Sequence record: PZ379176.1
Reading direction: 5' to 3' (one strand)
Length of the DNA stretch: 64,000 nucleotides
From: a phage
The notes below the pieces were generated by a model. The model made no database searches and was not told the origin of the DNA. It saw only the letters and a list, made by a program, of their open reading frames with translations. How positions within the stretch are numbered: the first letter of the stretch is position 1; each line of letters begins with the position of its first letter. Shown piece after piece: positions 2,319-45,983 of this stretch. A program made the translations under genes and the position numbers.

Positions 2319-3191
2319 ATGTCTAAAGTAGCGATTAACCACTTGAACAAAGCAAACGAAAGCCTTTCCTCTTTAGGCTTAACCGTTGGTAGTCCTGATG
2401 CGTGGATGGAAAACGAAAGTGCACGTAAAGGATTCAAAAACTCTGTAATGCTGGCTTGCTTGATCATTAACTCTACTGCGAACGCTTTACAGTGTGAAGA
2501 TGAAAGCACGTTCAAAGAGAACGGTTTTACCGATATGCAGGACGCTATTAATTGCTACATTCAAGCAAATTTAGATAGCTGGAATCAGAAGGATTGGCCT
2601 GAGTCATGCCGCGATGTGAAAGCTGAATTATCCCGCTTGTCTGTCATGGTTGAAGCATGGAATAAGAAAAACAAGAAACAGCCAATCAAGCCTACCGTTG
2701 CAAGTAAGATTATGAAGTCTGTTAATCTGGCAAGTTATGCACTGGTTGCAGCGATCGGTGTTAGTGCACTGGTCACATCTCTTTCTGATAAAGCTATCGC
2801 TAGTTCTACTCCTGCAACTGATGCCGCTAGTGTCTTCTCTAGTTCCATCAATAAGGGTTGGATGATTTGCAACGGTGCGGATAGTGATGGAAGTACTATT
2901 GTATTAAAAATGAAGTTTAGCAACGTAACTAATGATGGCGTTCTCTTTCAGTCTAAGACACTAGACAATCAGCCTAACAATGATCTAGTTCTCAAGCGCA
3001 CCGATAGTGACTCGGATATGGTTACATTTGGCACTGTACAACGTTACGAAGACGTTAAAGCTGTAACCAATCTAGTGAGTTATGGCCCGATCAATGAGTC
3101 GATGATTGCTACCACTGTTTACAATAACGCTAATAACGCTGTTTATACCGTTCACGTTAGTTTAGCCAACTGTATTAAGGCTAGTAAGTAA
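2319..3191 (+). CDS. hypothetical early protein with one internal hydrophobic helix
   Basis: ORF track; ATG preceded by AAGGAA; hydrophobic stretch LASYALVAAIGVSALVTSL. Confidence 0.6.
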   Translation: MSKVAINHLNKANESLSSLGLTVGSPDAWMENESARKGFKNSVMLACLIINSTANALQCEDESTFKENGFTDMQDAINCYIQANLDSWNQKDWPESCRDVKAELSRLSVMVEAWNKKNKKQPIKPTVASKIMKSVNLASYALVAAIGVSALVTSLSDKAIASSTPATDAASVFSSSINKGWMICNGADSDGSTIVLKMKFSNVTNDGVLFQSKTLDNQPNNDLVLKRTDSDSDMVTFGTVQRYEDVKAVTNLVSYGPINESMIATTVYNNANNAVYTVHVSLANCIKASK

Positions 3192-3216
3192 ATAACCTAT
3201 TTTCAGGAGTGTAAAA

Positions 3217-3483
3217 ATGGCTATCAAAGAAGTTAAGTTATCAAACGGCTTTTCTTGTTTTGTTGGTGGGCAATCTATCGAGTTTAATACACTTGATGGT
3301 CAGATAATCTTGCCTGTTATCACTTTTTGCAGGATGGAATATCAGCCTCTTAAAGATTGGCTAGCCTTTGCTGATTTCGAAATTACCCGCGATGATTTCA
3401 GATCAATCTATATTGACGGTGATTTGTCGCTGGCTAACCTGCTTAATCATGGTCTGATTGGGGATGATACCAATGGGAAATGA
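3217..3483 (+). CDS. hypothetical protein (88 aa)
   Basis: ORF track; SD-like AGGAG upstream. Confidence 0.5.
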   Translation: MAIKEVKLSNGFSCFVGGQSIEFNTLDGQIILPVITFCRMEYQPLKDWLAFADFEITRDDFRSIYIDGDLSLANLLNHGLIGDDTNGK

Positions 3484-29055: not shown

Positions 29056-29606
29056 AGAAAAAGAAGAAAGTGTTTGCATTCGATATCGAGAGTAATGCAC
29101 TGTACGATGACATAACTAAAGTATGGTGTATTTATATCTTTGATGTTGAAACTGGTGAAAGGTGGGGCTATCGGCCTCACCAAATTGAAGATGGGATTCG
29201 TAAACTTACAGAAGCAGATGTACTAGTGGGTCATAATATTATTGACTTCGACTTACCTGCTCTGAAAAAGATGTATCCTTCTTTGATTAAATATAATTTT
29301 AACGTCTTTGACACTTTATGTCTTAGTCGATATCTTAAACCTGACCGTATTGGTGACAGTCCTGAGTATCCGAAAGGCGACCCTAGACGTGGCCCAAGAG
29401 GTCATGGTTTGAAGCAATGGGGTGAGTTCTTAGAGGAACTTAAAGGTGACTACGGTGAGCAAGAGGAAGCATGGGATGCTTTCACTGAAGATATGTTTAC
29501 TTATTGTGAACAGGACGTTAACTTAACTGTTAAGGTTTATCTTTTCTTGTGTGAACTCACGGGATTTGACCCTTACGACCCACCTTCATTATATTGGAAA
29601 ATGTAA
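29049..29606 (+). CDS. DNA polymerase 3-prime to 5-prime exonuclease domain (T7 gp5-like N-terminal part) as separate ORF
   Basis: [10 protein letters not shown] and YRPHQ...[17 protein letters not shown] parallel the T7 gp5 N-terminus; GTG start overlaps primase-helicase stop. Confidence 0.8.
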
Positions 29607-29607
29607 A

Positions 29608-30921
29608 ATGATTGTTATCCCGATTAACCAAATTGAAGATAAGGTTGCTCAACAACCTGATATCACTGTTGGTCGTCACTTCATTGAACAATTGATTAAC
29701 AACAACTTGATTCCAGATGGTATCTGTCCCATCATTACTGGTGGGGCTGTTCGTGATGCTGTCCTTAATAACATAGCTCCACATGACATTGATATCTTTA
29801 TTGTCAGAGGACAAACACCAAGAACTCAAAACACTTTCATCCCAACTGATCGTTGGCAAGAGCTTGGACGGGAGATTGAAAGTAATGTGAAGGAATGGCT
29901 AGAGTCACAAGATATTGAATATGCATCACTTCTTGCTGAAGCTACAAACGAATCCTATGCTGGGGGTTCTCAATTAACATTCACTGATATTATTGAGTTT
30001 CAGTGGAATGGGGTTCGTATCCAATTCATGTTTAATTATCCTACTTCTATTGAAGAGGTATTGGATAATTTTCCTATGATGTGCCGTGGTGCGATGACTC
30101 TTGACAACTTATTCATGACTTCTCACGGATATTTGGCTATGACTTCCCCTTGTCCAGTGGTTGTCTATAGTCGTGAAATCAGGTATGTTCACAAGAAGTG
30201 GCCTAACTCACAAGTGTTGAGATTTTCCTCTCCAGCAGTTGCGCATCAATACATGGCCCAAACTCGATATCTTCCCACACCTCAGCCAGTTAGTCATCTA
30301 GTCAATGGATTAGGTCAGGTTTCTCTTATTGAAGATACAACAAGTGCTCTATATTGTGTTAACCAAGACATGAGTCGATTCTTTGGAATCCCTTATGAAG
30401 AGATTCAGATTATGTCTAGTCTTCACGGTTCTGGTCAGATTCATGCGTATTGGTCTGAGGGGTTGACAAATTTAACGACTAACACGGGTGGTGATCTGCT
30501 TGGTCGAGAAGAGGAACCTAACCGACACAATGCAATTGAAGGGGTGTTTGTAGCCCCTGCAATGCGTCGAGCACAAGAGTCACGAAGAGAAAGCCCTACT
30601 CGTAGAACATCTTTTGAAGAAGCTCTTGGTATTACAAGTGATTCTATGGAGCGATGGATGGCTAGACCCTCTCGTGGTCGACCAAACGGCTTAACTGTTA
30701 GCGCACGTCAGTTCTCTGGTCAGGGTTTCGCTGTTGGTGATATCAACGCCCCTTCTCGTGTTATCTGGACTGATGAAGGTATGGAACAAGATTTGGGAGA
30801 TAGTCTCGCTGATCGCTTTATTGCTAACAACCCTGAAGTATTAGAACCTCAAACCCGTACAGTTCGGTTTGCCGATGAAGCGGGTCGTGGAATCTCTTTT
30901 GACATGGAAACAAATAACTAA
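29608..30921 (+). CDS. pol-beta superfamily nucleotidyltransferase (CCA-adding / poly(A) polymerase head-domain-like)
   Basis: ITGGAVRDAVL...HDIDIFIV matches GG-x-VRD and D-x-D head motifs. Confidence 0.55.
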   Translation: MIVIPINQIEDKVAQQPDITVGRHFIEQLINNNLIPDGICPIITGGAVRDAVLNNIAPHDIDIFIVRGQTPRTQNTFIPTDRWQELGREIESNVKEWLESQDIEYASLLAEATNESYAGGSQLTFTDIIEFQWNGVRIQFMFNYPTSIEEVLDNFPMMCRGAMTLDNLFMTSHGYLAMTSPCPVVVYSREIRYVHKKWPNSQVLRFSSPAVAHQYMAQTRYLPTPQPVSHLVNGLGQVSLIEDTTSALYCVNQDMSRFFGIPYEEIQIMSSLHGSGQIHAYWSEGLTNLTTNTGGDLLGREEEPNRHNAIEGVFVAPAMRRAQESRRESPTRRTSFEEALGITSDSMERWMARPSRGRPNGLTVSARQFSGQGFAVGDINAPSRVIWTDEGMEQDLGDSLADRFIANNPEVLEPQTRTVRFADEAGRGISFDMETNN

Positions 30922-30930
30922 GGAATAAGA

Positions 30931-31464
30931 ATGAGTTTACTAGGAAGTATTGAACTGCATGATGTAATTGACAATGGCTATCTGGATGCGGAGCATAAGT
31001 ATGTTAACGCTGCTAGTGTGGATATCCGTATTGGTGATACTATCCTTGTTGAAGAACAGGCTGATGGCATCGTTGATATTGATGCGAAAGAGAATCTTCA
31101 GTGGAAGGAAGTAAAGATTCCTGAAGAGGGTTTGGTTATCACTCCGGGTCAGTTCTTCTTGGCTCACTCTATGGAGGAGTTTAATCTTCCAGATAACATC
31201 TCAAGTCTGTTTGTTCTGCGTTCGTCTATGGCTCGTTGTGGTTTGAACCACCTTCACGCCGGTTGGGCAGATGCAGGATTTAATAGTAGTAAGCTGACAT
31301 TTGAATTCCATAACGTAACCAAGCACCACAGCTTACGAGTTCGTGCTGGTATGCGTGTTGGTCAGATGGTTATGTTTGAGCACTCTCATGCAGGGGAACA
31401 TTCCTACGCAGTGAAGGGTCGTTATAATAACTCTGAAGGTGTGGTTGCATCTAAAGGTGTGTAA
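30931..31464 (+). CDS. dcd: dCTP deaminase
   Basis: ASVDIRIGD and HAGWADAGF motifs typical of the dCTP deaminase/dUTPase fold. Confidence 0.7.
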   Translation: MSLLGSIELHDVIDNGYLDAEHKYVNAASVDIRIGDTILVEEQADGIVDIDAKENLQWKEVKIPEEGLVITPGQFFLAHSMEEFNLPDNISSLFVLRSSMARCGLNHLHAGWADAGFNSSKLTFEFHNVTKHHSLRVRAGMRVGQMVMFEHSHAGEHSYAVKGRYNNSEGVVASKGV

Positions 31465-31662
31465 ATGAAAAAGTGGATTGTTCGTGTACATGATAACACG
31501 ACTGGAGAGTTAGTAGCTGTAGATTTTGTTAAGACTCGAGAGCACGCACGTAGGGTCAAAAATCAATACAAGTCTACTTTTAGACTTAATAAGGTTACAC
31601 TAGGAAAAGCTATCGTGAATAGTGAAGGTGCTTTTTGTGTCAACAGTAAGGTTTATTACTAA
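31465..31662 (+). CDS. small protein, tandem paralog 1 of 3
   Basis: 65 aa ending in YY; similar to next two ORFs. Confidence 0.45.
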   Translation: MKKWIVRVHDNTTGELVAVDFVKTREHARRVKNQYKSTFRLNKVTLGKAIVNSEGAFCVNSKVYY

Positions 31663-31871
31663 TGAGACCAATCACTATGAGAAAATTCTGGTTAGCGAAG
31701 ATTAAGTGGGCATCAGGTGGTATGACTATGACTGCACTCCCTACTCGTCAACAAGCTCGAGATTTTAAAAAGACTATGCTTACTGGTGACGTGGTTAATA
31801 GTATCAGCATCCATAAGGCCAAGGAGTATTCTTCTGGTCGTGTTTATATCAGCGGAAAGGTACATTACTAA
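31662..31871 (+). CDS. small protein, tandem paralog 2 of 3
   Basis: 69 aa ending in HY; TAATG overlap. Confidence 0.45.
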   Translation: MRPITMRKFWLAKIKWASGGMTMTALPTRQQARDFKKTMLTGDVVNSISIHKAKEYSSGRVYISGKVHY

Positions 31872-32080
31872 TGAAAAAGATGTGGGCTATTCATGTTGTT
31901 TGGGATCTTGAGCAACACATGAGAAAAGATAACATCAAATTGTTTGACACTCGCAAAGAGGCTCGTATTGCTAAGAAACAGTTGAAGACTCTGGGCACAA
32001 TAGTAAAAAGCGCTGACATACATCGCTGGTATGAAGACCCTAACACTGGTTCTTTTATGTCTAAAGTAATTTACTACTGA
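31871..32080 (+). CDS. small protein, tandem paralog 3 of 3
   Basis: 69 aa ending in YY; TAATG overlap. Confidence 0.45.
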   Translation: MKKMWAIHVVWDLEQHMRKDNIKLFDTRKEARIAKKQLKTLGTIVKSADIHRWYEDPNTGSFMSKVIYY

Positions 32081-32152
32081 TTGGTAGTAGATATGATAAC
32101 TCTCAAATGTATATAGAGTACAATAAGAATTTGTATTTTACAGGAGAGAGTT

Positions 32153-32482
32153 ATGTTAGATTTGAGTAAAGTGGCCCCGCCCACTGAAGAGATTACAAAA
32201 TCCAAGGTGATGCAACAGTTTTATCATCGTGATATGCTTGGTCGCTTTATCAAGAATCGTGATGTTGTTGCTTGGTCTATTGGTAATCAGGGATATCTGT
32301 TGAAGGTTCTTCAGGTTACAGGTTCAACTGCTAAGCGAGTTAAGGTGTATGACCCTGAAATGGGGCGTTCTAAGTCAGTAGACCCACAGAACTGCATCGT
32401 AATTACCCAGCAGGTAATGGATAATATTGCACGTAACGTTGCTAACTCAGTTGAACTTGATGGAGAAAACCCAAATGCATAA
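32153..32482 (+). CDS. hypothetical protein (109 aa)
   Basis: ORF track; SD GGAGAGAG. Confidence 0.45.
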   Translation: MLDLSKVAPPTEEITKSKVMQQFYHRDMLGRFIKNRDVVAWSIGNQGYLLKVLQVTGSTAKRVKVYDPEMGRSKSVDPQNCIVITQQVMDNIARNVANSVELDGENPNA

Positions 32483-33038
32483 GAATGTTTTTGATTTACC
32501 TGAGATTGGTCGTGACAGCTATAGCATGTTAGACCGGTCCGACCTATCAATCTCTCGCCTTGAAACAATGCAAGGCATGATTAGTGGAAACAGCCTAGAA
32601 CACATCCTGAGCTGCTTACAAGCTAACATGGAACTCTTGCATATCAAAGCTAAAAACTACCACTGGAACGTCTCTGGTGCAGGATTTCAGGGTGTTCATG
32701 GTATGTTTGATGAGCTGGAAGATTACGCACGACAGGTAGGAGATCGTATTGCTGAACGTATGCGTTACCACTGTGTTAAAGTGGATGCTACAGCAGCTAA
32801 TTATCTTTCTCATGCTTGGTTCTCAGAGGGGAATGCTGATCTAGACATGGACGGTATGCTCTCTGATATGTGCATGACCTTGATGTGTATTATTGAGAAG
32901 ATGGATGAGTTTGATGGTGATTTAGCCTCCTACCCTGTCGATCAGAGTATGCTTCAAGAAATTAATGAAGGTCTTGGCAAGTATTGCTACTTCGTCAAGA
33001 GCAACATGTCCCATTCAAGTGGTGACGTGTCTTACTAA
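32460..33038 (+). CDS. Dps-like ferritin-superfamily protein
   Basis: LQANMELLHIKAKNYHWNVSGAGFQGVHGMFDELEDY...DRIAER matches the Dps core signature; start at 32460 or 32475. Confidence 0.6.
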   Translation: MEKTQMHKNVFDLPEIGRDSYSMLDRSDLSISRLETMQGMISGNSLEHILSCLQANMELLHIKAKNYHWNVSGAGFQGVHGMFDELEDYARQVGDRIAERMRYHCVKVDATAANYLSHAWFSEGNADLDMDGMLSDMCMTLMCIIEKMDEFDGDLASYPVDQSMLQEINEGLGKYCYFVKSNMSHSSGDVSY

Positions 33039-33098
33039 AACCTCCGCCCTGTCTCCTAACCCGAGGTGGGGCGAACTTATTTATAAGGATATAGATAT

Positions 33099-33278
33099 AT
33101 GTTATCAGCAATCGTATGGGGTATTTGGGCTATCTTTATCGGTGGTGGTATTTATTGGGCTTCTGGTAAGCTTATTGAAGAAACTCCTGATAAGAAAGGT
33201 GAGATTCAAACAGCATCAACCATCATGGTTATCGTAGCTGTTGTTATCCCATTCCTGCTTCACCTCCTGACTGCATAA
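33099..33278 (+). CDS. small membrane protein (59 aa, two hydrophobic segments)
   Basis: ATG after AAGGA; below track cut-off. Confidence 0.3.
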   Translation: MLSAIVWGIWAIFIGGGIYWASGKLIEETPDKKGEIQTASTIMVIVAVVIPFLLHLLTA

Positions 33279-33286
33279 GGATTTAC

Positions 33287-33562
33287 ATGTCTAAAGTAAT
33301 TAAGTTTTATAGTGATCAGTGTGCTCCATGTAAAGCAATGGCTCCTACCTTTGAGAAGGTTGTTAAGGAGTTTGATGTAGAAGTGGAAGAGATTAACATC
33401 CTTGAAGGTGATGGTCGTGAACAAGCTGTTAAGTATGGTGTACGAAGCATCCCTGCTTTTGTTGTGCCTGACCGTAACAGTGGTGCACACTACAGCCTCT
33501 CCGGTATGCAGACTGAAGCAAACCTGAAAGCATTTTTGGACACAGCCCTGAGAAATAAGTAA
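33287..33562 (+). CDS. thioredoxin-like protein
   Basis: Active site CAPCK and cis-Pro-like SIPAF in thioredoxin-fold spacing. Confidence 0.7.
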   Translation: MSKVIKFYSDQCAPCKAMAPTFEKVVKEFDVEVEEINILEGDGREQAVKYGVRSIPAFVVPDRNSGAHYSLSGMQTEANLKAFLDTALRNK

Positions 33563-33577
33563 TAAGGATATTCACGG

Positions 33578-34234
33578 ATGAATGAACAACTACAAGCAAC
33601 ATTAATCGAAGCTATGGGAAGTGATCGTAGCGTAGTAAACGCAGCTCGAGTTTCCTTTGGCGTAACCCGTGAAGGTGATTTAAATGAACGTGATGAACGT
33701 CTCATCAACTTCCTCGCAAGAGAGAAGCATGTTACCCCATTCCGACACCCGCAAGTCAGTTTCCGATGCAAAGCACCTATCGCAATTGCAAGACAGTTGG
33801 GCAAGCATCAGGTTGGATTCTCGTGGAACGAAATGTCCCGGCGGTATAAAGATGGAGCAGTTGAAGTCTTCATCCCTAAAGAGATTTTTGCGAGACCTTC
33901 GGACCTCCATGCAGGTTCAGGGATTCAACTCATCGACGGAGAGCGAGCTGAAGCATTAATGTTAATTAACGATGCATATGAAGCTTCTCTAGCAGCATAT
34001 GACAAGTTGATTGAGTTTATTGCACCAGAGCAAGCTCGATTTGTTCTTCCTCAGGGGATGATCACTGAGTGGGTGTGGACCGGTTCTTTGTATGGCTGGT
34101 TTGAGTTGTGTCGTCAGCGACTCTCCTCTCACGCTCAATATGAAGTTCGAGTGTTTGCTAAATCTGTAGACGAAGAGATGTCTAAGATCTACCCAATCTC
34201 GTGGGCAGCTCTGAAGAAAACATTGGAGATTTAA
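33578..34234 (+). CDS. thyX: ThyX-like flavin-dependent thymidylate synthase homolog with divergent signature
   Basis: FRHPQVSF...LGKHQVGFSWNEMSRRY resembles the ThyX RHR-x7-S-x-RY region but has KHQ where RHR is expected. Confidence 0.55.
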   Translation: MNEQLQATLIEAMGSDRSVVNAARVSFGVTREGDLNERDERLINFLAREKHVTPFRHPQVSFRCKAPIAIARQLGKHQVGFSWNEMSRRYKDGAVEVFIPKEIFARPSDLHAGSGIQLIDGERAEALMLINDAYEASLAAYDKLIEFIAPEQARFVLPQGMITEWVWTGSLYGWFELCRQRLSSHAQYEVRVFAKSVDEEMSKIYPISWAALKKTLEI

Positions 34235-34614: not shown

Positions 34615-34780
34615 CTTCTGTAAGAAAGAGAAACCTATCGCCAACTTCAAACCTAACCCTGTAACCGGTCTGACCCATGTCATGTGCCACTCTTGCAGGA
34701 TATATCTTGAAACAAAGCACACTATCAATAGGTTGCACTATTATCACCCAACAACATTCAAATTTAAGGTTGTGAAATGA
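34595..34780 (+). CDS. small zinc-ribbon-like protein
   Basis: CSFC...CHSC; ATG at 34595 in track frame. Confidence 0.4.
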   Translation: MEKKVCSFCKKEKPIANFKPNPVTGLTHVMCHSCRIYLETKHTINRLHYYHPTTFKFKVVK

Positions 34781-35100
34781 TTGACAGTAATACATTTAGG
34801 ACTTCAAATGGAAGTGAAATAAGTCCCGCTGAAGTAATCAATCGGCATAGAAGGCAATTGATCATCCATTCCTATTTGTATTACTGGTTGGATGACCCTA
34901 TCTGGTCTGATGATAAATGGCAACAAGTTGCTAATGATCTAGTGGAGCTGCAAGCTCTGTATCCAGAACCTACTGGAGTCTTTGACAACGAGTTTAAAGA
35001 TTGGGATGGTTCTACAGGTATGCATCTCCCACATAACGAAGCTGTTGCTTGTATGGCGACAGCTGTTTACAGACTTCATAAAGAGGTTAACGTCGCATGA
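34777..35100 (+). CDS. hypothetical protein (107 aa)
   Basis: ORF track; ATGA overlap. Confidence 0.45.
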   Translation: MIDSNTFRTSNGSEISPAEVINRHRRQLIIHSYLYYWLDDPIWSDDKWQQVANDLVELQALYPEPTGVFDNEFKDWDGSTGMHLPHNEAVACMATAVYRLHKEVNVA

Positions 35101-36957: not shown

Positions 36958-37212
36958 ATGTCTATTGTAAAAATCGTAAATATCATTGATGTAACTCGTA
37001 CCGGTAAAACTATCAGTTGGAAATTCACCAATAAGCATAGAGGTTCAGAGAACATCATTCGTTCTATGATTCAACAAAACCCAAATACAGCTCGCACTAA
37101 CGTACTCCTTCGAGGAGCTGATGGAAAATTTATCTCTTATAAGAATAAGAACGTAGAAAAATCTTTCCGTGTTGCAGTAGAAAATCTCATCCCATTCCCT
37201 AAAGGAGTTTAA
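36958..37212 (+). CDS. small protein, tandem paralog 1 of 2
   Basis: Shares GKFISYK...LIPFPKG with next ORF. Confidence 0.45.
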   Translation: MSIVKIVNIIDVTRTGKTISWKFTNKHRGSENIIRSMIQQNPNTARTNVLLRGADGKFISYKNKNVEKSFRVAVENLIPFPKGV

Positions 37213-37213
37213 T

Positions 37214-37498
37214 ATGAATAAGTTAGCTATGGTTCAAATTCGGGACACATACCCTAACCGCCCGGAGCAGAAACCGCGTACTTGGTCTTATCTGTTAGCT
37301 GAAAGTAAGACTATTGACAAATACGCTGTAGGGATTGATGCTATTCCAACTAGTATCACATTGCTCCCTCACAAAACAGCCAGAACCCATGTGATGTTAC
37401 GTGATAGCAAAGGTAAGTTTATCTCTTATCGTGATTCACGAATCAATAATGAGATTAAATCTGCTATGGAATTTTTGATGCCATTCCCAAGAGGTTGA
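37214..37498 (+). CDS. small protein, tandem paralog 2 of 2
   Basis: Shares GKFISYR...LMPFPRG with previous ORF. Confidence 0.45.
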   Translation: MNKLAMVQIRDTYPNRPEQKPRTWSYLLAESKTIDKYAVGIDAIPTSITLLPHKTARTHVMLRDSKGKFISYRDSRINNEIKSAMEFLMPFPRG

Positions 37499-38100: not shown

Positions 38101-39944
38101 GTGAGCAACCCGGACGCTCTTCCATTTTTGACAGAGATGACTGTCGCTGATATAATCTCTAAGCAAGCAAAGCACGGAGTGAGTTTCAACCGAAGAAATG
38201 CTCGGTGGTATGTTCACCTCCTTAAAGAGATTATTGTTAATATTGACAGAGAGTTGATTCCTCTCTTACCTAAGATGAGATTAGATGGCTCTACTTACAT
38301 GAAGCCATTTAAGAAGTCTGGAGCTTTACAGAAGTGGCCTCAAGCCTATTGTGATAGGGTTGGGCTGAAAAGAGAAGATATTGGTGGAGCTTTCACCTGC
38401 GTCGAATACGTAGACTTTGACCCATCGAAAGATGCACGAGTTAAAGAAGCTCTTATGGATGAGGGTTTTCTTCCTCCAGAGTTTAACGTATCTAAGAAGC
38501 CTTGGAATACTTTCGAAATTAAGAAAGATATGCGAAAGTATGGAACATACCAAGCATGGTATACTGCTTGGATGCGAGGTAATGCTAAGCAAAAGCAGAC
38601 AGCCGAGATGGTTGACGCTGATATTAAGAAGTTCTTAGAAAAGCATTTCAGGTTTAAAACTAAGAACTATATGAAGGCTTACGTATTTGGTTTGGGATTA
38701 AACCCGAATCGCCGTAATCCTGTAACGTTTGATGAGATTAAGAAAGCACTAGCCACATCAAACAAGTGGCCTACAGCTCCTACAAACCTCGAGGAGACTC
38801 TTGAAGAAGGGTTAGGGGTGAGCTAGGGAGTGTCGGAAGTTTGCTTAAGAGACGCGTTGTAGCGGCTCACAGGCTAGGTCTTATCAGTGGACTCATAGCA
38901 AAGGAACGCGAAGATGGTAAACTTTCGGCAGAAGCTAACAGCTGCGCTACGCCGACTTTTCGATTCAAACATCGTATCGTGGTTAATATTCCCTCCCGTG
39001 GTCTGTTTGGTCACGAGTGTCGCAGTTTGTTTGAGTCTGACTATAACTCAGACAGTGATCACTCTCGTCCTTTCGTTATTACTAACGTTGTTCCTGATGG
39101 TTGTTATATACGAAAAGGTACTAACGTAATTTACGAGAAAGGTAAGCCGGGGAAGAAAGATAAACCTATAGGTGCTTACAAATATTACATACCCGCTGGT
39201 AAAGAAGTATTCTTAGGGTATGATGGTTCTGGACTTGAACTTCGTATGCTCGCTCACTACCTCATTAAAGAGTGTAGGGATATGCTTGCTGAGGCAATTG
39301 AAGAGAACAACCCAGCTAAGAAAGCTCTGGCAGAACGTGGTTTAGCTTCTGCTATTATGTATCGTGATATTCTCCTTGAAGGTGATATCCACTCCCACAA
39401 CCAGAAACTTGCTGGTCTTCCTACTCGTGACAACGCTAAGACGTTTATCTACGCATTCAACTATGGTGCTGGTGATGCTAAGCTTGGTTCAATTGTAGGT
39501 GGTGGGGCTGACGAAGGTTCAGTGATGCGAGCACGTTTCTTAGCAGAGAACCCATGTATTGCAATCCTCATTGATCGTATGACAGAGAAAGCTGCTCAAG
39601 GATACTTGATTGGAGTTGATGGTCGTAAGATTACAATGAGACGGGATGCCACTGGTAAGGTTATGGTTCATAAAGCCCTTAACACACTCCTGCAATGTGC
39701 TGGTGCTGTTGTTATGAAATATGCTATGATGTTCCTTAACAAGTGGATTGAGAAAGATAAGGTTCGTTGTGCTAAGGTAATTGATATGCACGATGAAGGT
39801 CAATTCTCAGTAAACCGTAATGATGTACAGAAACTCAAAGAGCACACCGAGCTTTGTGTTAAGAAAGCTGGCGAGTATCTGAATATGGAATGTCCTCTGG
39901 CATCTGATTGTCAGATTGGACTTAACTGGATGCATACACACTAA
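38101..39944 (+). CDS. DNA polymerase, polymerase domain (T7 gp5-like palm/fingers), interrupted by a frame break near 38805-38826
   Basis: SKQAKHGVSFN; EDGK...FRFKHRIVVNIPSRGLFGHECRSLF; DGSGLELRMLAHY; LPTRDNAKTFIYAFNYGAGDAKLG; MHDEGQF parallel T7 gp5; GTG start with SD AAAGGAG. Confidence 0.8.
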
Positions 39945-45456: not shown

Positions 45457-45983
45457 ATAAGTTTAACCTTATGGAAGAAGAGATTGCTGATCTGTGTCAC
45501 AAATTAAGAGATAAGACCAGAACGATTTCTATGTTACGTGCAGTTATTGATAGCTATCGTAAATCTGTTGAAGAAATCTCTTCGTGTTCTGCTGATACAG
45601 AAATTCGGTATGCAATGAAAAGGTTGATAGTAAAGCCGCCAGTAGGTGAAGAGTATCCAATTTATTCCTCTGTTCCTGTAGTCAGTTTTAAGCCTACAAC
45701 TGAACAAACCAGCAAAAGAAGTCCAGCTTTAGACACTATGGTTGGGGGTGCACACTATAACCCTGAATCTAAAATCATTCAGCCTGTTGAGTTTTACCAT
45801 GCAAACCCTCAGTTGAACTTCCAACAAACCAATATGATCAAATACGCTTATCGACACAAAGATAAGAATAAGGTTCAGGATTTGTTGAAGGTTGTTCACT
45901 ACGCCCTTCTTGAGTGTGGGTTTGAATACCCTGAAGAGTATGATAACTTCCGCAATGAAATCCGTAAGCTGTTAGGAGAATAA
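45453..45983 (+). CDS. hypothetical protein (possible DUF3310-like C-terminus)
   Basis: GGAHYNPE...IKYAYRHKDKN...DLLKVVHYALL; from memory only. Confidence 0.3.

Follow-up and report, generated by a model that had tools for sequence, protein, structure and literature searches.

Two genes of pyrimidine nucleotide metabolism lie on the forward strand of a 64,000-nucleotide stretch of phage DNA (record PZ379176.1), which was analyzed as a whole and is called the window below. The first encodes a deoxycytidine triphosphate (dCTP) deaminase, Dcd, and the second, about 2 kb downstream, a flavin-dependent thymidylate synthase, ThyX; both open reading frames (ORFs) are full length. A sequence-only reading of this region (30931-34234) had proposed two roles for the ThyX-like protein, either a normal route for the supply of deoxythymidine monophosphate (dTMP) or the modification of pyrimidines by an enzyme with altered specificity. 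The 3.3-kb region shares 97-99% DNA identity with the Escherichia phages EK5, FS2B, SU10 and phiEco32, and the early and replication region of the window aligns collinearly with phiEco32. The source of the window is a Kuravirus (phiEco32-like) coliphage of the Gordonclarkvirinae.

Public annotations of EK5, phiEco32 and their relatives give the two genes the same identities, dCTP deaminase and thymidylate synthase ThyX. Dozens of Kuravirus genomes already have the pair annotated, and the pathway is routine phage nucleotide metabolism. The phiEco32 orthologues of the window ThyX and Dcd are gp64 (thymidylate synthase) and gp72 (dCTP deaminase), and the gene order is the same. Over the 3.3-kb region phiEco32 and the window share 97.3% DNA identity, and the proteins differ by five amino acids in ThyX and two in Dcd; neither gene shows a difference of substance, and the genomes diverge elsewhere. 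Relative to phiEco32, the ratio of nonsynonymous to synonymous polymorphism (pN/pS) is 0.035 for Dcd and 0.12, from small counts, for ThyX, indicating purifying selection on both genes.

The dCTP deaminase and the ThyX protein

The Dcd gene (30931-31464) encodes a 177-amino-acid protein of the homotrimeric dUTPase superfamily. The sequence-only reading had recognized a dCTP deaminase from the peptides ASVDIRIGD and HAGWADAGF, and rightly so: the ORF contains AASVDIRIGD and HAGWADAGF, and its product scores 118.5 bits (E=3.6e-34; cut-off 27) against PF22769 (DCD) and 107.6 bits (cut-off 92.8) against the TIGR02274 dCTP_deam equivalog. With these curated cut-offs exceeded, we assign the protein to the dCTP deaminase family. 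In a global alignment with E. coli Dcd it keeps the equivalents of R110, S111, R115, D128 and E138 together with the C-terminal lid, RSSMAR pairing with RSSLAR and TFEFHN with VLEFYN. The catalytic segments also align to the solved enzymes of B. halodurans (4xjc; 6e-15, 59 bits) and M. tuberculosis (2qxx; 6e-14, 55 bits), which are the closest solved structures. The scores against E. coli Dcd and M. jannaschii DCD-DUT are 36 bits and 33.6 bits, respectively.

The B. halodurans and M. tuberculosis relatives are bifunctional enzymes that combine dCTP deaminase and dUTPase activities and form deoxyuridine monophosphate (dUMP). They share with the window Dcd an AG(W/F)xDxGF segment, whereas E. coli Dcd has AHRIDPGW at this place. 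M. jannaschii DCD-DUT is bifunctional too, and its similarity to the window Dcd is no higher than that of E. coli Dcd. The sequence therefore does not decide between a monofunctional and a bifunctional Dcd.

The ThyX gene (33578-34234) encodes 218 amino acids and belongs to the subfamily that we call KHQ type for the reason given below. As the sequence-only reading had supposed, a ThyX-like protein does lie close to Dcd: the translation scores 150.1 bits (E=8.5e-44; cut-off 24.8) against PF02511 (Thy1) and 127.3 bits (cut-off 87.9) against the TIGR02170 thyX equivalog, and phmmer relates it to the ThyX of T. thermophilus (2e-31) and T. maritima (6e-25). For Dcd and ThyX alike, the family matches indicate strong homology and not chance. 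An AlphaFold2 model of the ThyX protein (predicted local distance difference test 95.6; predicted template modeling score 0.89) was compared by Foldseek with the TM0449 structures that contain flavin adenine dinucleotide (FAD) and dUMP, giving template modeling (TM) scores of 0.79-0.82 at E ~3e-18; the predicted fold is that of ThyX. The T. maritima TM0449 and T. thermophilus 6j61 enzymes are thus of the same Pfam and TIGRFAM family and the same fold (TM ~0.8), at ~33% identity.

The classic ThyX motif is R-H-R-X7-8-S (Myllykallio 2002, as cited in PMC2826268). The window protein does not match it. Nucleotides 33803-33847 translate to KHQVGFSWNEMSRRY, giving K76-H77-Q78-X8-S87, in which both Arg are substituted but the spacing class stays the same, as do the His and the Ser. 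The codons of K76-H77-Q78 (33803-33811) fall in the columns of the canonical R-H-R. Those of S82-W-N-E-M-S87-R-R89-Y90 (33821-33847) make up the nucleotide-binding half of the motif (N85, E86, S88, R90 and Y91 in T. maritima), so that the S-x-N-E-x-S-R-R-Y part is kept, as had been noticed at first sight. In the phmmer alignments with the T. maritima and T. thermophilus enzymes, 'arqlgKHQvgfswnemsrry' stands opposite 'arqwfRHRia-synelsgry', with K76-H77-Q78 in the R78/H79/R80 columns and one additional residue ahead of the conserved Ser. Alignment to characterized ThyX enzymes thus upholds the description of the motif as KHQ instead of RHR. We rejected the idea that RHR is simply displaced, since the alignment columns are unambiguous and the protein has no RHR at any other place; the motif is replaced. 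Compared with T. maritima ThyX, the window protein also has eight rather than seven residues before the Ser, and G89 is changed to Arg, E58 to Arg, N163 to Ser, R165 to Tyr and N169 to Glu.

Distribution and residue pattern of the KHQ-type subfamily

Every one of the 120 closest clusters (built at 90% identity, the most remote being 54% identical) has KHQ with identical spacing. An exhaustive HMMER search over 1.84 billion cluster representatives returned 6929 proteins at E<=1e-3, of which 355 reach E<=1e-30. For a distant set we used the 126 full-length proteins among the best 150 representatives at 50% identity. KHQ is present in 60 of these 126, the others having K/R, H/S and Q/K/T/H/V and similar residues at the three positions. 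The third Arg is kept in only two (one RHR, one KHR), the other 124 departing from the classic motif like the window protein, and the eight-residue spacing is present in 108.

The phages that carry the KHQ type are mutually unrelated. They include Kuravirus, Salmonella 7-11-like phages, the roseophages CRP and SIO1, phages of Vibrio and Rheinheimera, and phages of ~53 kb from Erwinia, Escherichia, Pectobacterium and Yersinia, those of the first three hosts being Chaseviridae-type. In IMG/VR, two motif patterns match at least 600 stretches, of which at least 598 encode a relative. The same two patterns match 47 loci in prokaryotes (one genome per species, 185,579 species), and these cellular matches are mostly on short contigs of metagenome-assembled genomes or prophage-like. 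The KHQ variant is the hallmark of a large, mainly phage-borne ThyX subfamily that is rare in cellular genomes. A search around 80 viral KHQ-type loci found no ThyA within 10 kb. Among the same 80 loci, one 7-11-like viral contig (L049) keeps the order Dcd then ThyX, and it is also the only one in which Dcd, thioredoxin or Dps adjoins the ThyX gene. Because this contig alone shows it, the linkage of Dcd and ThyX is specific to a lineage and not a trait of the subfamily.

In metagenome-assembled genomes of four bacterial lineages the KHQ-type gene stands in conserved housekeeping synteny. Four species of Nitrospinaceae have the order HlyD-ThyX-IspH-MlaA with flanks 80-93% identical (loci L020, L026, L039 and L047). 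In Poribacteria (L015, L016 and L018) an enolase-superfamily gene, ThyX and an aminotransferase lie together; in SAR202/Dehalococcoidia (L009, L010, L007, L014 and L023) a 2-oxoacid dehydrogenase E2 gene is followed by ThyX; and in Spirochaetia (L004 and L005) the order is short-chain dehydrogenase/reductase, ThyX, dihydroorotate dehydrogenase, with flanks ~50% identical. Synteny of this kind is what would be expected of the cell's own thymidylate synthase, and it argues that the KHQ type would serve a general function in cells, thymidylate synthesis being the simplest candidate.

The residues that contact dUMP or take part in catalysis are kept. Nine such residues of T. maritima ThyX (H53, R74, Q75, E86, S88, R90, Y91, R147 and R174) correspond to H51, R72, Q73, E85, S87, R89, Y90, R154 and R181 of the window protein; all are invariant in 119 close relatives and are kept in 110-126 of the 126 distant representatives, R74 being the lowest with 110. 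In T. maritima ThyX, R174 reads N3 and O4 of uracil. We tallied residues over 245 subfamily sequences. The N, E, S, R and Y of the motif are invariant or nearly so, motif position 1 is basic (K or R) in 244 sequences, and Arg takes the place of T. maritima G89 in 235 (SRRY). The third motif position, T. maritima position 80, varies freely (Q/K/T/H/V) and behaves as though its role were lost. A basic residue occurs at T. maritima position 58 or 169, with exactly one of the two being basic in 208 of 246 sequences. Arg at 89 and the basic residue at 58 or 169 probably compensate for the missing R80, the 58/169 pattern being confounded by phylogeny.

The RHR triad is used to define and filter the ThyX family, and an earlier phylogenetic study dropped sequences with more than two residue deviations from the motif; yet the triad is systematically absent from a large, phage-dominated subfamily that keeps every nucleotide-contacting residue. 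This absence from a mostly viral subfamily is less well known. Specialists could use the subfamily as an experiment of nature to learn how ThyX binds flavin and dUMP, and whether inhibitors directed at the canonical site would apply.

The residues that changed chiefly hold the phosphates and the ribityl of FAD, with some contact to dUMP, and the base is not read by them. With both Arg of the flavin-phosphate-binding triad gone, the protein might have given up flavin binding altogether and serve as a non-catalytic dUMP-binding or regulatory protein. We consider this very improbable, as the catalytic residues are strictly conserved across the deep subfamily, the fold is intact, the gene is under purifying selection and has a housekeeping chromosomal context in bacteria, Lys retains the positive charge at motif position 1, and Arg has been gained at 89 and at 58 or 169.

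The altered motif might instead reflect the use of another nucleotide, namely deoxycytidine monophosphate (dCMP), yielding 5-methyl- or 5-hydroxymethyl-dCMP, or uridine monophosphate (UMP), in the manner of PolB. A weaker, significant similarity to chain 4p5a (1e-15), the UMP/dUMP methylase PolB, points the same way. True thymidylate synthases are far closer, however, with the E-values of 2e-31 and 6e-25 given above, and R174, R90 and S88 are invariant. Moreover, near-total avoidance of CCWGG (one site in the window against ~94 expected) suggests unmodified cytosines that are open to EcoRII-type cleavage. The use of another nucleotide is accordingly most unlikely in our view, and altered nucleotide specificity is not supported.

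Two observations on individual members of the subfamily may be added. A single-cell contig labeled Prochlorococcus sp. AG-402-I21 (L035, 772-3326) encodes a KHQ-type ThyX and a T4 gp32-like single-strand-binding protein (2427-3326). The ThyX from this contig is nearest to those of the roseophages CRP-5 and SIO1, and the contig is probably phage DNA rather than cyanobacterial chromosome. It is the one phage-looking contig that constitutes the sole 'Prochlorococcus' match to the exact KHQV/WNExSRR patterns. Some other members (P0122 and P0135; other long ones are P0189, P0234 and P0241) carry a putative intein inside the ThyX motif. These intein-like members are 350-640 amino acids long, have two matched stretches each, and read ...VVHN directly before SWNE(R/M)S.RY.

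Probable thymidylate supply and the question of DNA base modification

Because the dUMP-contacting and catalytic residues are kept, and because KHQ is common to many phages without close relationship and to bacteria that have the gene in housekeeping synteny, we favor an ordinary dTMP supply route, which the two enzymes most likely form in this phiEco32-like coliphage. Dcd would convert surplus dCTP either to deoxyuridine triphosphate (dUTP), which the host Dut would then hydrolyze, or, if bifunctional, directly to dUMP. ThyX would then convert dUMP to dTMP with methylene-tetrahydrofolate, a bound flavin and reduced nicotinamide adenine dinucleotide phosphate (NADPH). In the subfamily, where the first motif position is K or R and the His is kept, loss of the third Arg would be offset by Arg at 89 and a basic residue at 58 or 169. 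The route would move the host pool from C towards T and provide more deoxythymidine triphosphate (dTTP) for a genome of ~42% G+C. The G+C content of the window is ~0.39-0.47 per 2 kb, and that of the host is ~51%. The phage DNA would contain ordinary thymine. BLAST and tblastn searches of the window, with E. coli ThyA as a query, gave no homologue of ThyA or Dut. Of the two roles put forward by the sequence-only reading, the ordinary supply of dTMP is thus the one that the kept residues and the wide distribution of KHQ bear out, while the pyrimidine modifier of altered specificity gained no positive support.

The chlorovirus PBCV-1 follows the same logic: according to PMC10142491, this AT-rich virus has a lower G+C content than its GC-rich host and raises dTTP with its own deaminase and ThyX (A674R). 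Its ThyX is distant from that of the window (E=2e-7). The PBCV-1 enzyme has the canonical RHR, and the virus relies on a dCMP deaminase together with a dUTPase of its own.

Several points speak against an ordinary supply route. A review of solved ThyX structures describes RHR as hydrogen bonding to the adenosine monophosphate (AMP) phosphate, the ribityl and the flavin mononucleotide (FMN) phosphate of FAD, with the first Arg also touching the isoalloxazine and dUMP. R78 and R80 appear in another paper's list of residues that hydrogen bond to dUMP, and mutagenesis of M. tuberculosis ThyX found the RHR motif to be needed for activity. Since RHR binds FAD and dUMP and is necessary in M. tuberculosis, the KHQ substitution is not trivial; we found no assay of any KHQ-type ThyX in the literature. 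[quoted passage not shown] EcoRV (27), EcoKI (7) and EcoP1 (95) sites occur in the window at the expected frequency, so for the enzymes tested in that paper site avoidance does not explain the published RM resistance, which points to some other protective feature.

The same BASEL paper speculated that deoxyuridine-containing DNA (dU-DNA) might arise through Dcd and the neighboring nucleotidyltransferase. Uracil would then replace thymine as in PBS1, with Dcd as the key enzyme, and the presence of a bona fide Dcd without a detected separate dUTPase is consistent with such a scheme. Synthesis of dTMP is something that a phage with dU-DNA should suppress rather than encode, however, and a conserved ThyX gene with an intact active site and under selection, 2 kb downstream of Dcd, weighs against the published speculation for the Gordonclarkvirinae. 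In addition, the best solved relatives of Dcd are bifunctional enzymes that form dUMP and do not accumulate dUTP, and no Ugi-like function was identified in a search that was not exhaustive. We therefore hold uracil-containing DNA to be highly unlikely in this phage.

Restriction sites other than CCWGG were also counted over the window. GATC occurs 134 times against ~301 expected and the AflII site 7 times against 34, and sites for BamHI, PstI, KpnI, SacI, NcoI, SphI and EcoO109 are absent; HpaI, DraI, CCGG and GCGC are at expectation. The strong avoidance of many type II palindromes suggests selection by enzymes able to cut this DNA. The termini of phiEco32 have been mapped via restriction profiling and subcloning.

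These counts bear on a further explanation, in which ThyX performs altered chemistry on dUMP. The methylene would pass to water, producing 5-hydroxymethyl-dUMP, or to some other nucleophile, and the product would feed a base modification behind the RM resistance. The ThyX mechanism indeed proceeds via an exocyclic methylene, the motif that holds flavin and dUMP has changed, and a large amidoligase/glutamine amidotransferase cluster without a known target lies nearby. The RM resistance itself, for which modification has been speculated, and the undepleted EcoRV, EcoKI and EcoP1 sites would also be accommodated. We nevertheless judge altered dUMP chemistry to be improbable. Many phages that are not related to one another have the same variant, as do bacteria in which it lies in housekeeping synteny, and all dUMP-contacting and catalytic residues, H53 included, are kept. 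A Pfam and PHROG scan of ~28 window ORFs gave no match that suggests a hypermodification enzyme (for example a 5-hmdU DNA kinase or thymine pyrophosphorylase), nor to the kinases and transferases that act downstream of a ThyA-fold hydroxymethylase. The type II palindrome avoidance suggests cleavable DNA, and restriction profiling and subcloning of phiEco32 worked for the mapping of its termini.

Known thymidine hypermodification begins with a ThyA-type hydroxymethylase and not with ThyX. The ThyA-type dUMP and dCMP hydroxymethylases likewise add one carbon from methylene-tetrahydrofolate at C5 of the pyrimidine, but their fold is unrelated to that of the window ThyX, and no ThyA-like sequence was found in the window. 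That the KHQ-type ThyX of the Gordonclarkvirinae diverts the flavin-borne one-carbon unit, or the exocyclic methylene, into a non-methyl C5 substituent on dUMP is quite improbable. Were it true, no ThyX-fold enzyme before this one would have been found to initiate base modification in phage DNA, and the RM resistance of these phages would be explained. A contribution of the variant ThyX to this resistance is of low probability and unsupported. PHROG and Pfam scans of the neighboring and early-region ORFs revealed no anti-restriction or hypermodification enzyme, and we found nothing decisive in the literature on ThyX in hypermodification or on the composition and digestion of Kuravirus DNA.

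Neighboring genes and other features of the window

Directly upstream of Dcd, a 456-amino-acid nucleotidyltransferase (29551-30921) contains a GGAVRD...DIDIF motif, which resembles the head domain found in poly(A) polymerases and in CCA-adding enzymes of class II. The protein has a weak match to PF01743 (E=0.0023) and corresponds to PHROG 12715, 'nucleotidyltransferase'. A tRNA-Arg is carried by phiEco32. The BASEL paper suspects that this nucleotidyltransferase has a role in DNA modification; tRNA repair or RNA tailing seems at least as likely.

Between Dcd and ThyX lie three tandem small ORFs of 65, 69 and 69 amino acids (31465-32080). They are paralogues with 22-27% identity and the common pattern M-K-W...TR..AR..K...Y. 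Two further ORFs (36958-37212 and 37214-37498) appear paralogous by eye. Just upstream of ThyX are two further genes. One encodes a Dps/ferritin-like protein (32427-33038; PF00210, E=3e-7); the other, 16 bp from the ThyX gene, encodes a thioredoxin whose active site reads CAPC (33287-33562). This adjacency is not kept at the other viral KHQ-type loci, the 7-11-like contig excepted. Ribonucleotide reductase is not listed in the phiEco32 annotation of the region that is collinear with most of the window. Downstream of ThyX, 34777-35100 encodes a stand-alone 107-amino-acid N-terminal Ia domain, the part that binds nicotinamide adenine dinucleotide (NAD+), of an NAD-dependent DNA ligase (PF22745, E=2.7e-35). 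The protein is labeled 'DNA ligase' in phiEco32, yet it is without the adenylation domain.

A phiEco32-type amidoligase cluster extends from 17667 to 27045. It comprises a COOH-NH2 ligase (19841-20647), an Amidoligase_2 protein (21271-22374), a glutamine amidotransferase/GlmS-like protein (22793-24436), a split RimK-like ligase (24927-26119) and a gamma-glutamyl cyclotransferase (26626-27045), and it also holds several ORFs of unknown function.

Three genes of the window appear interrupted or shortened relative to phiEco32. The DNA polymerase (38101-39944) is divided into 241 and 367 amino acids in two frames, against a single 614-amino-acid ORF in phiEco32; the RimK-like ligase consists of 151 and 236 amino acids against 397; and the GlmS-like amidotransferase (~22400-24436) has a late ORF start that leaves 547 amino acids against 676. 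That an essential polymerase is frameshifted points to indel errors in the source assembly. The phiEco32 gp34 (annotated as a deoxynucleoside monophosphate kinase or Walker-A ATPase, 297 amino acids) has no counterpart in the window, and the BLAST alignment breaks at this point. The slot of gp34 (45462-45983) is occupied in the window by a different ORF of 178 amino acids with a DUF3310 domain.

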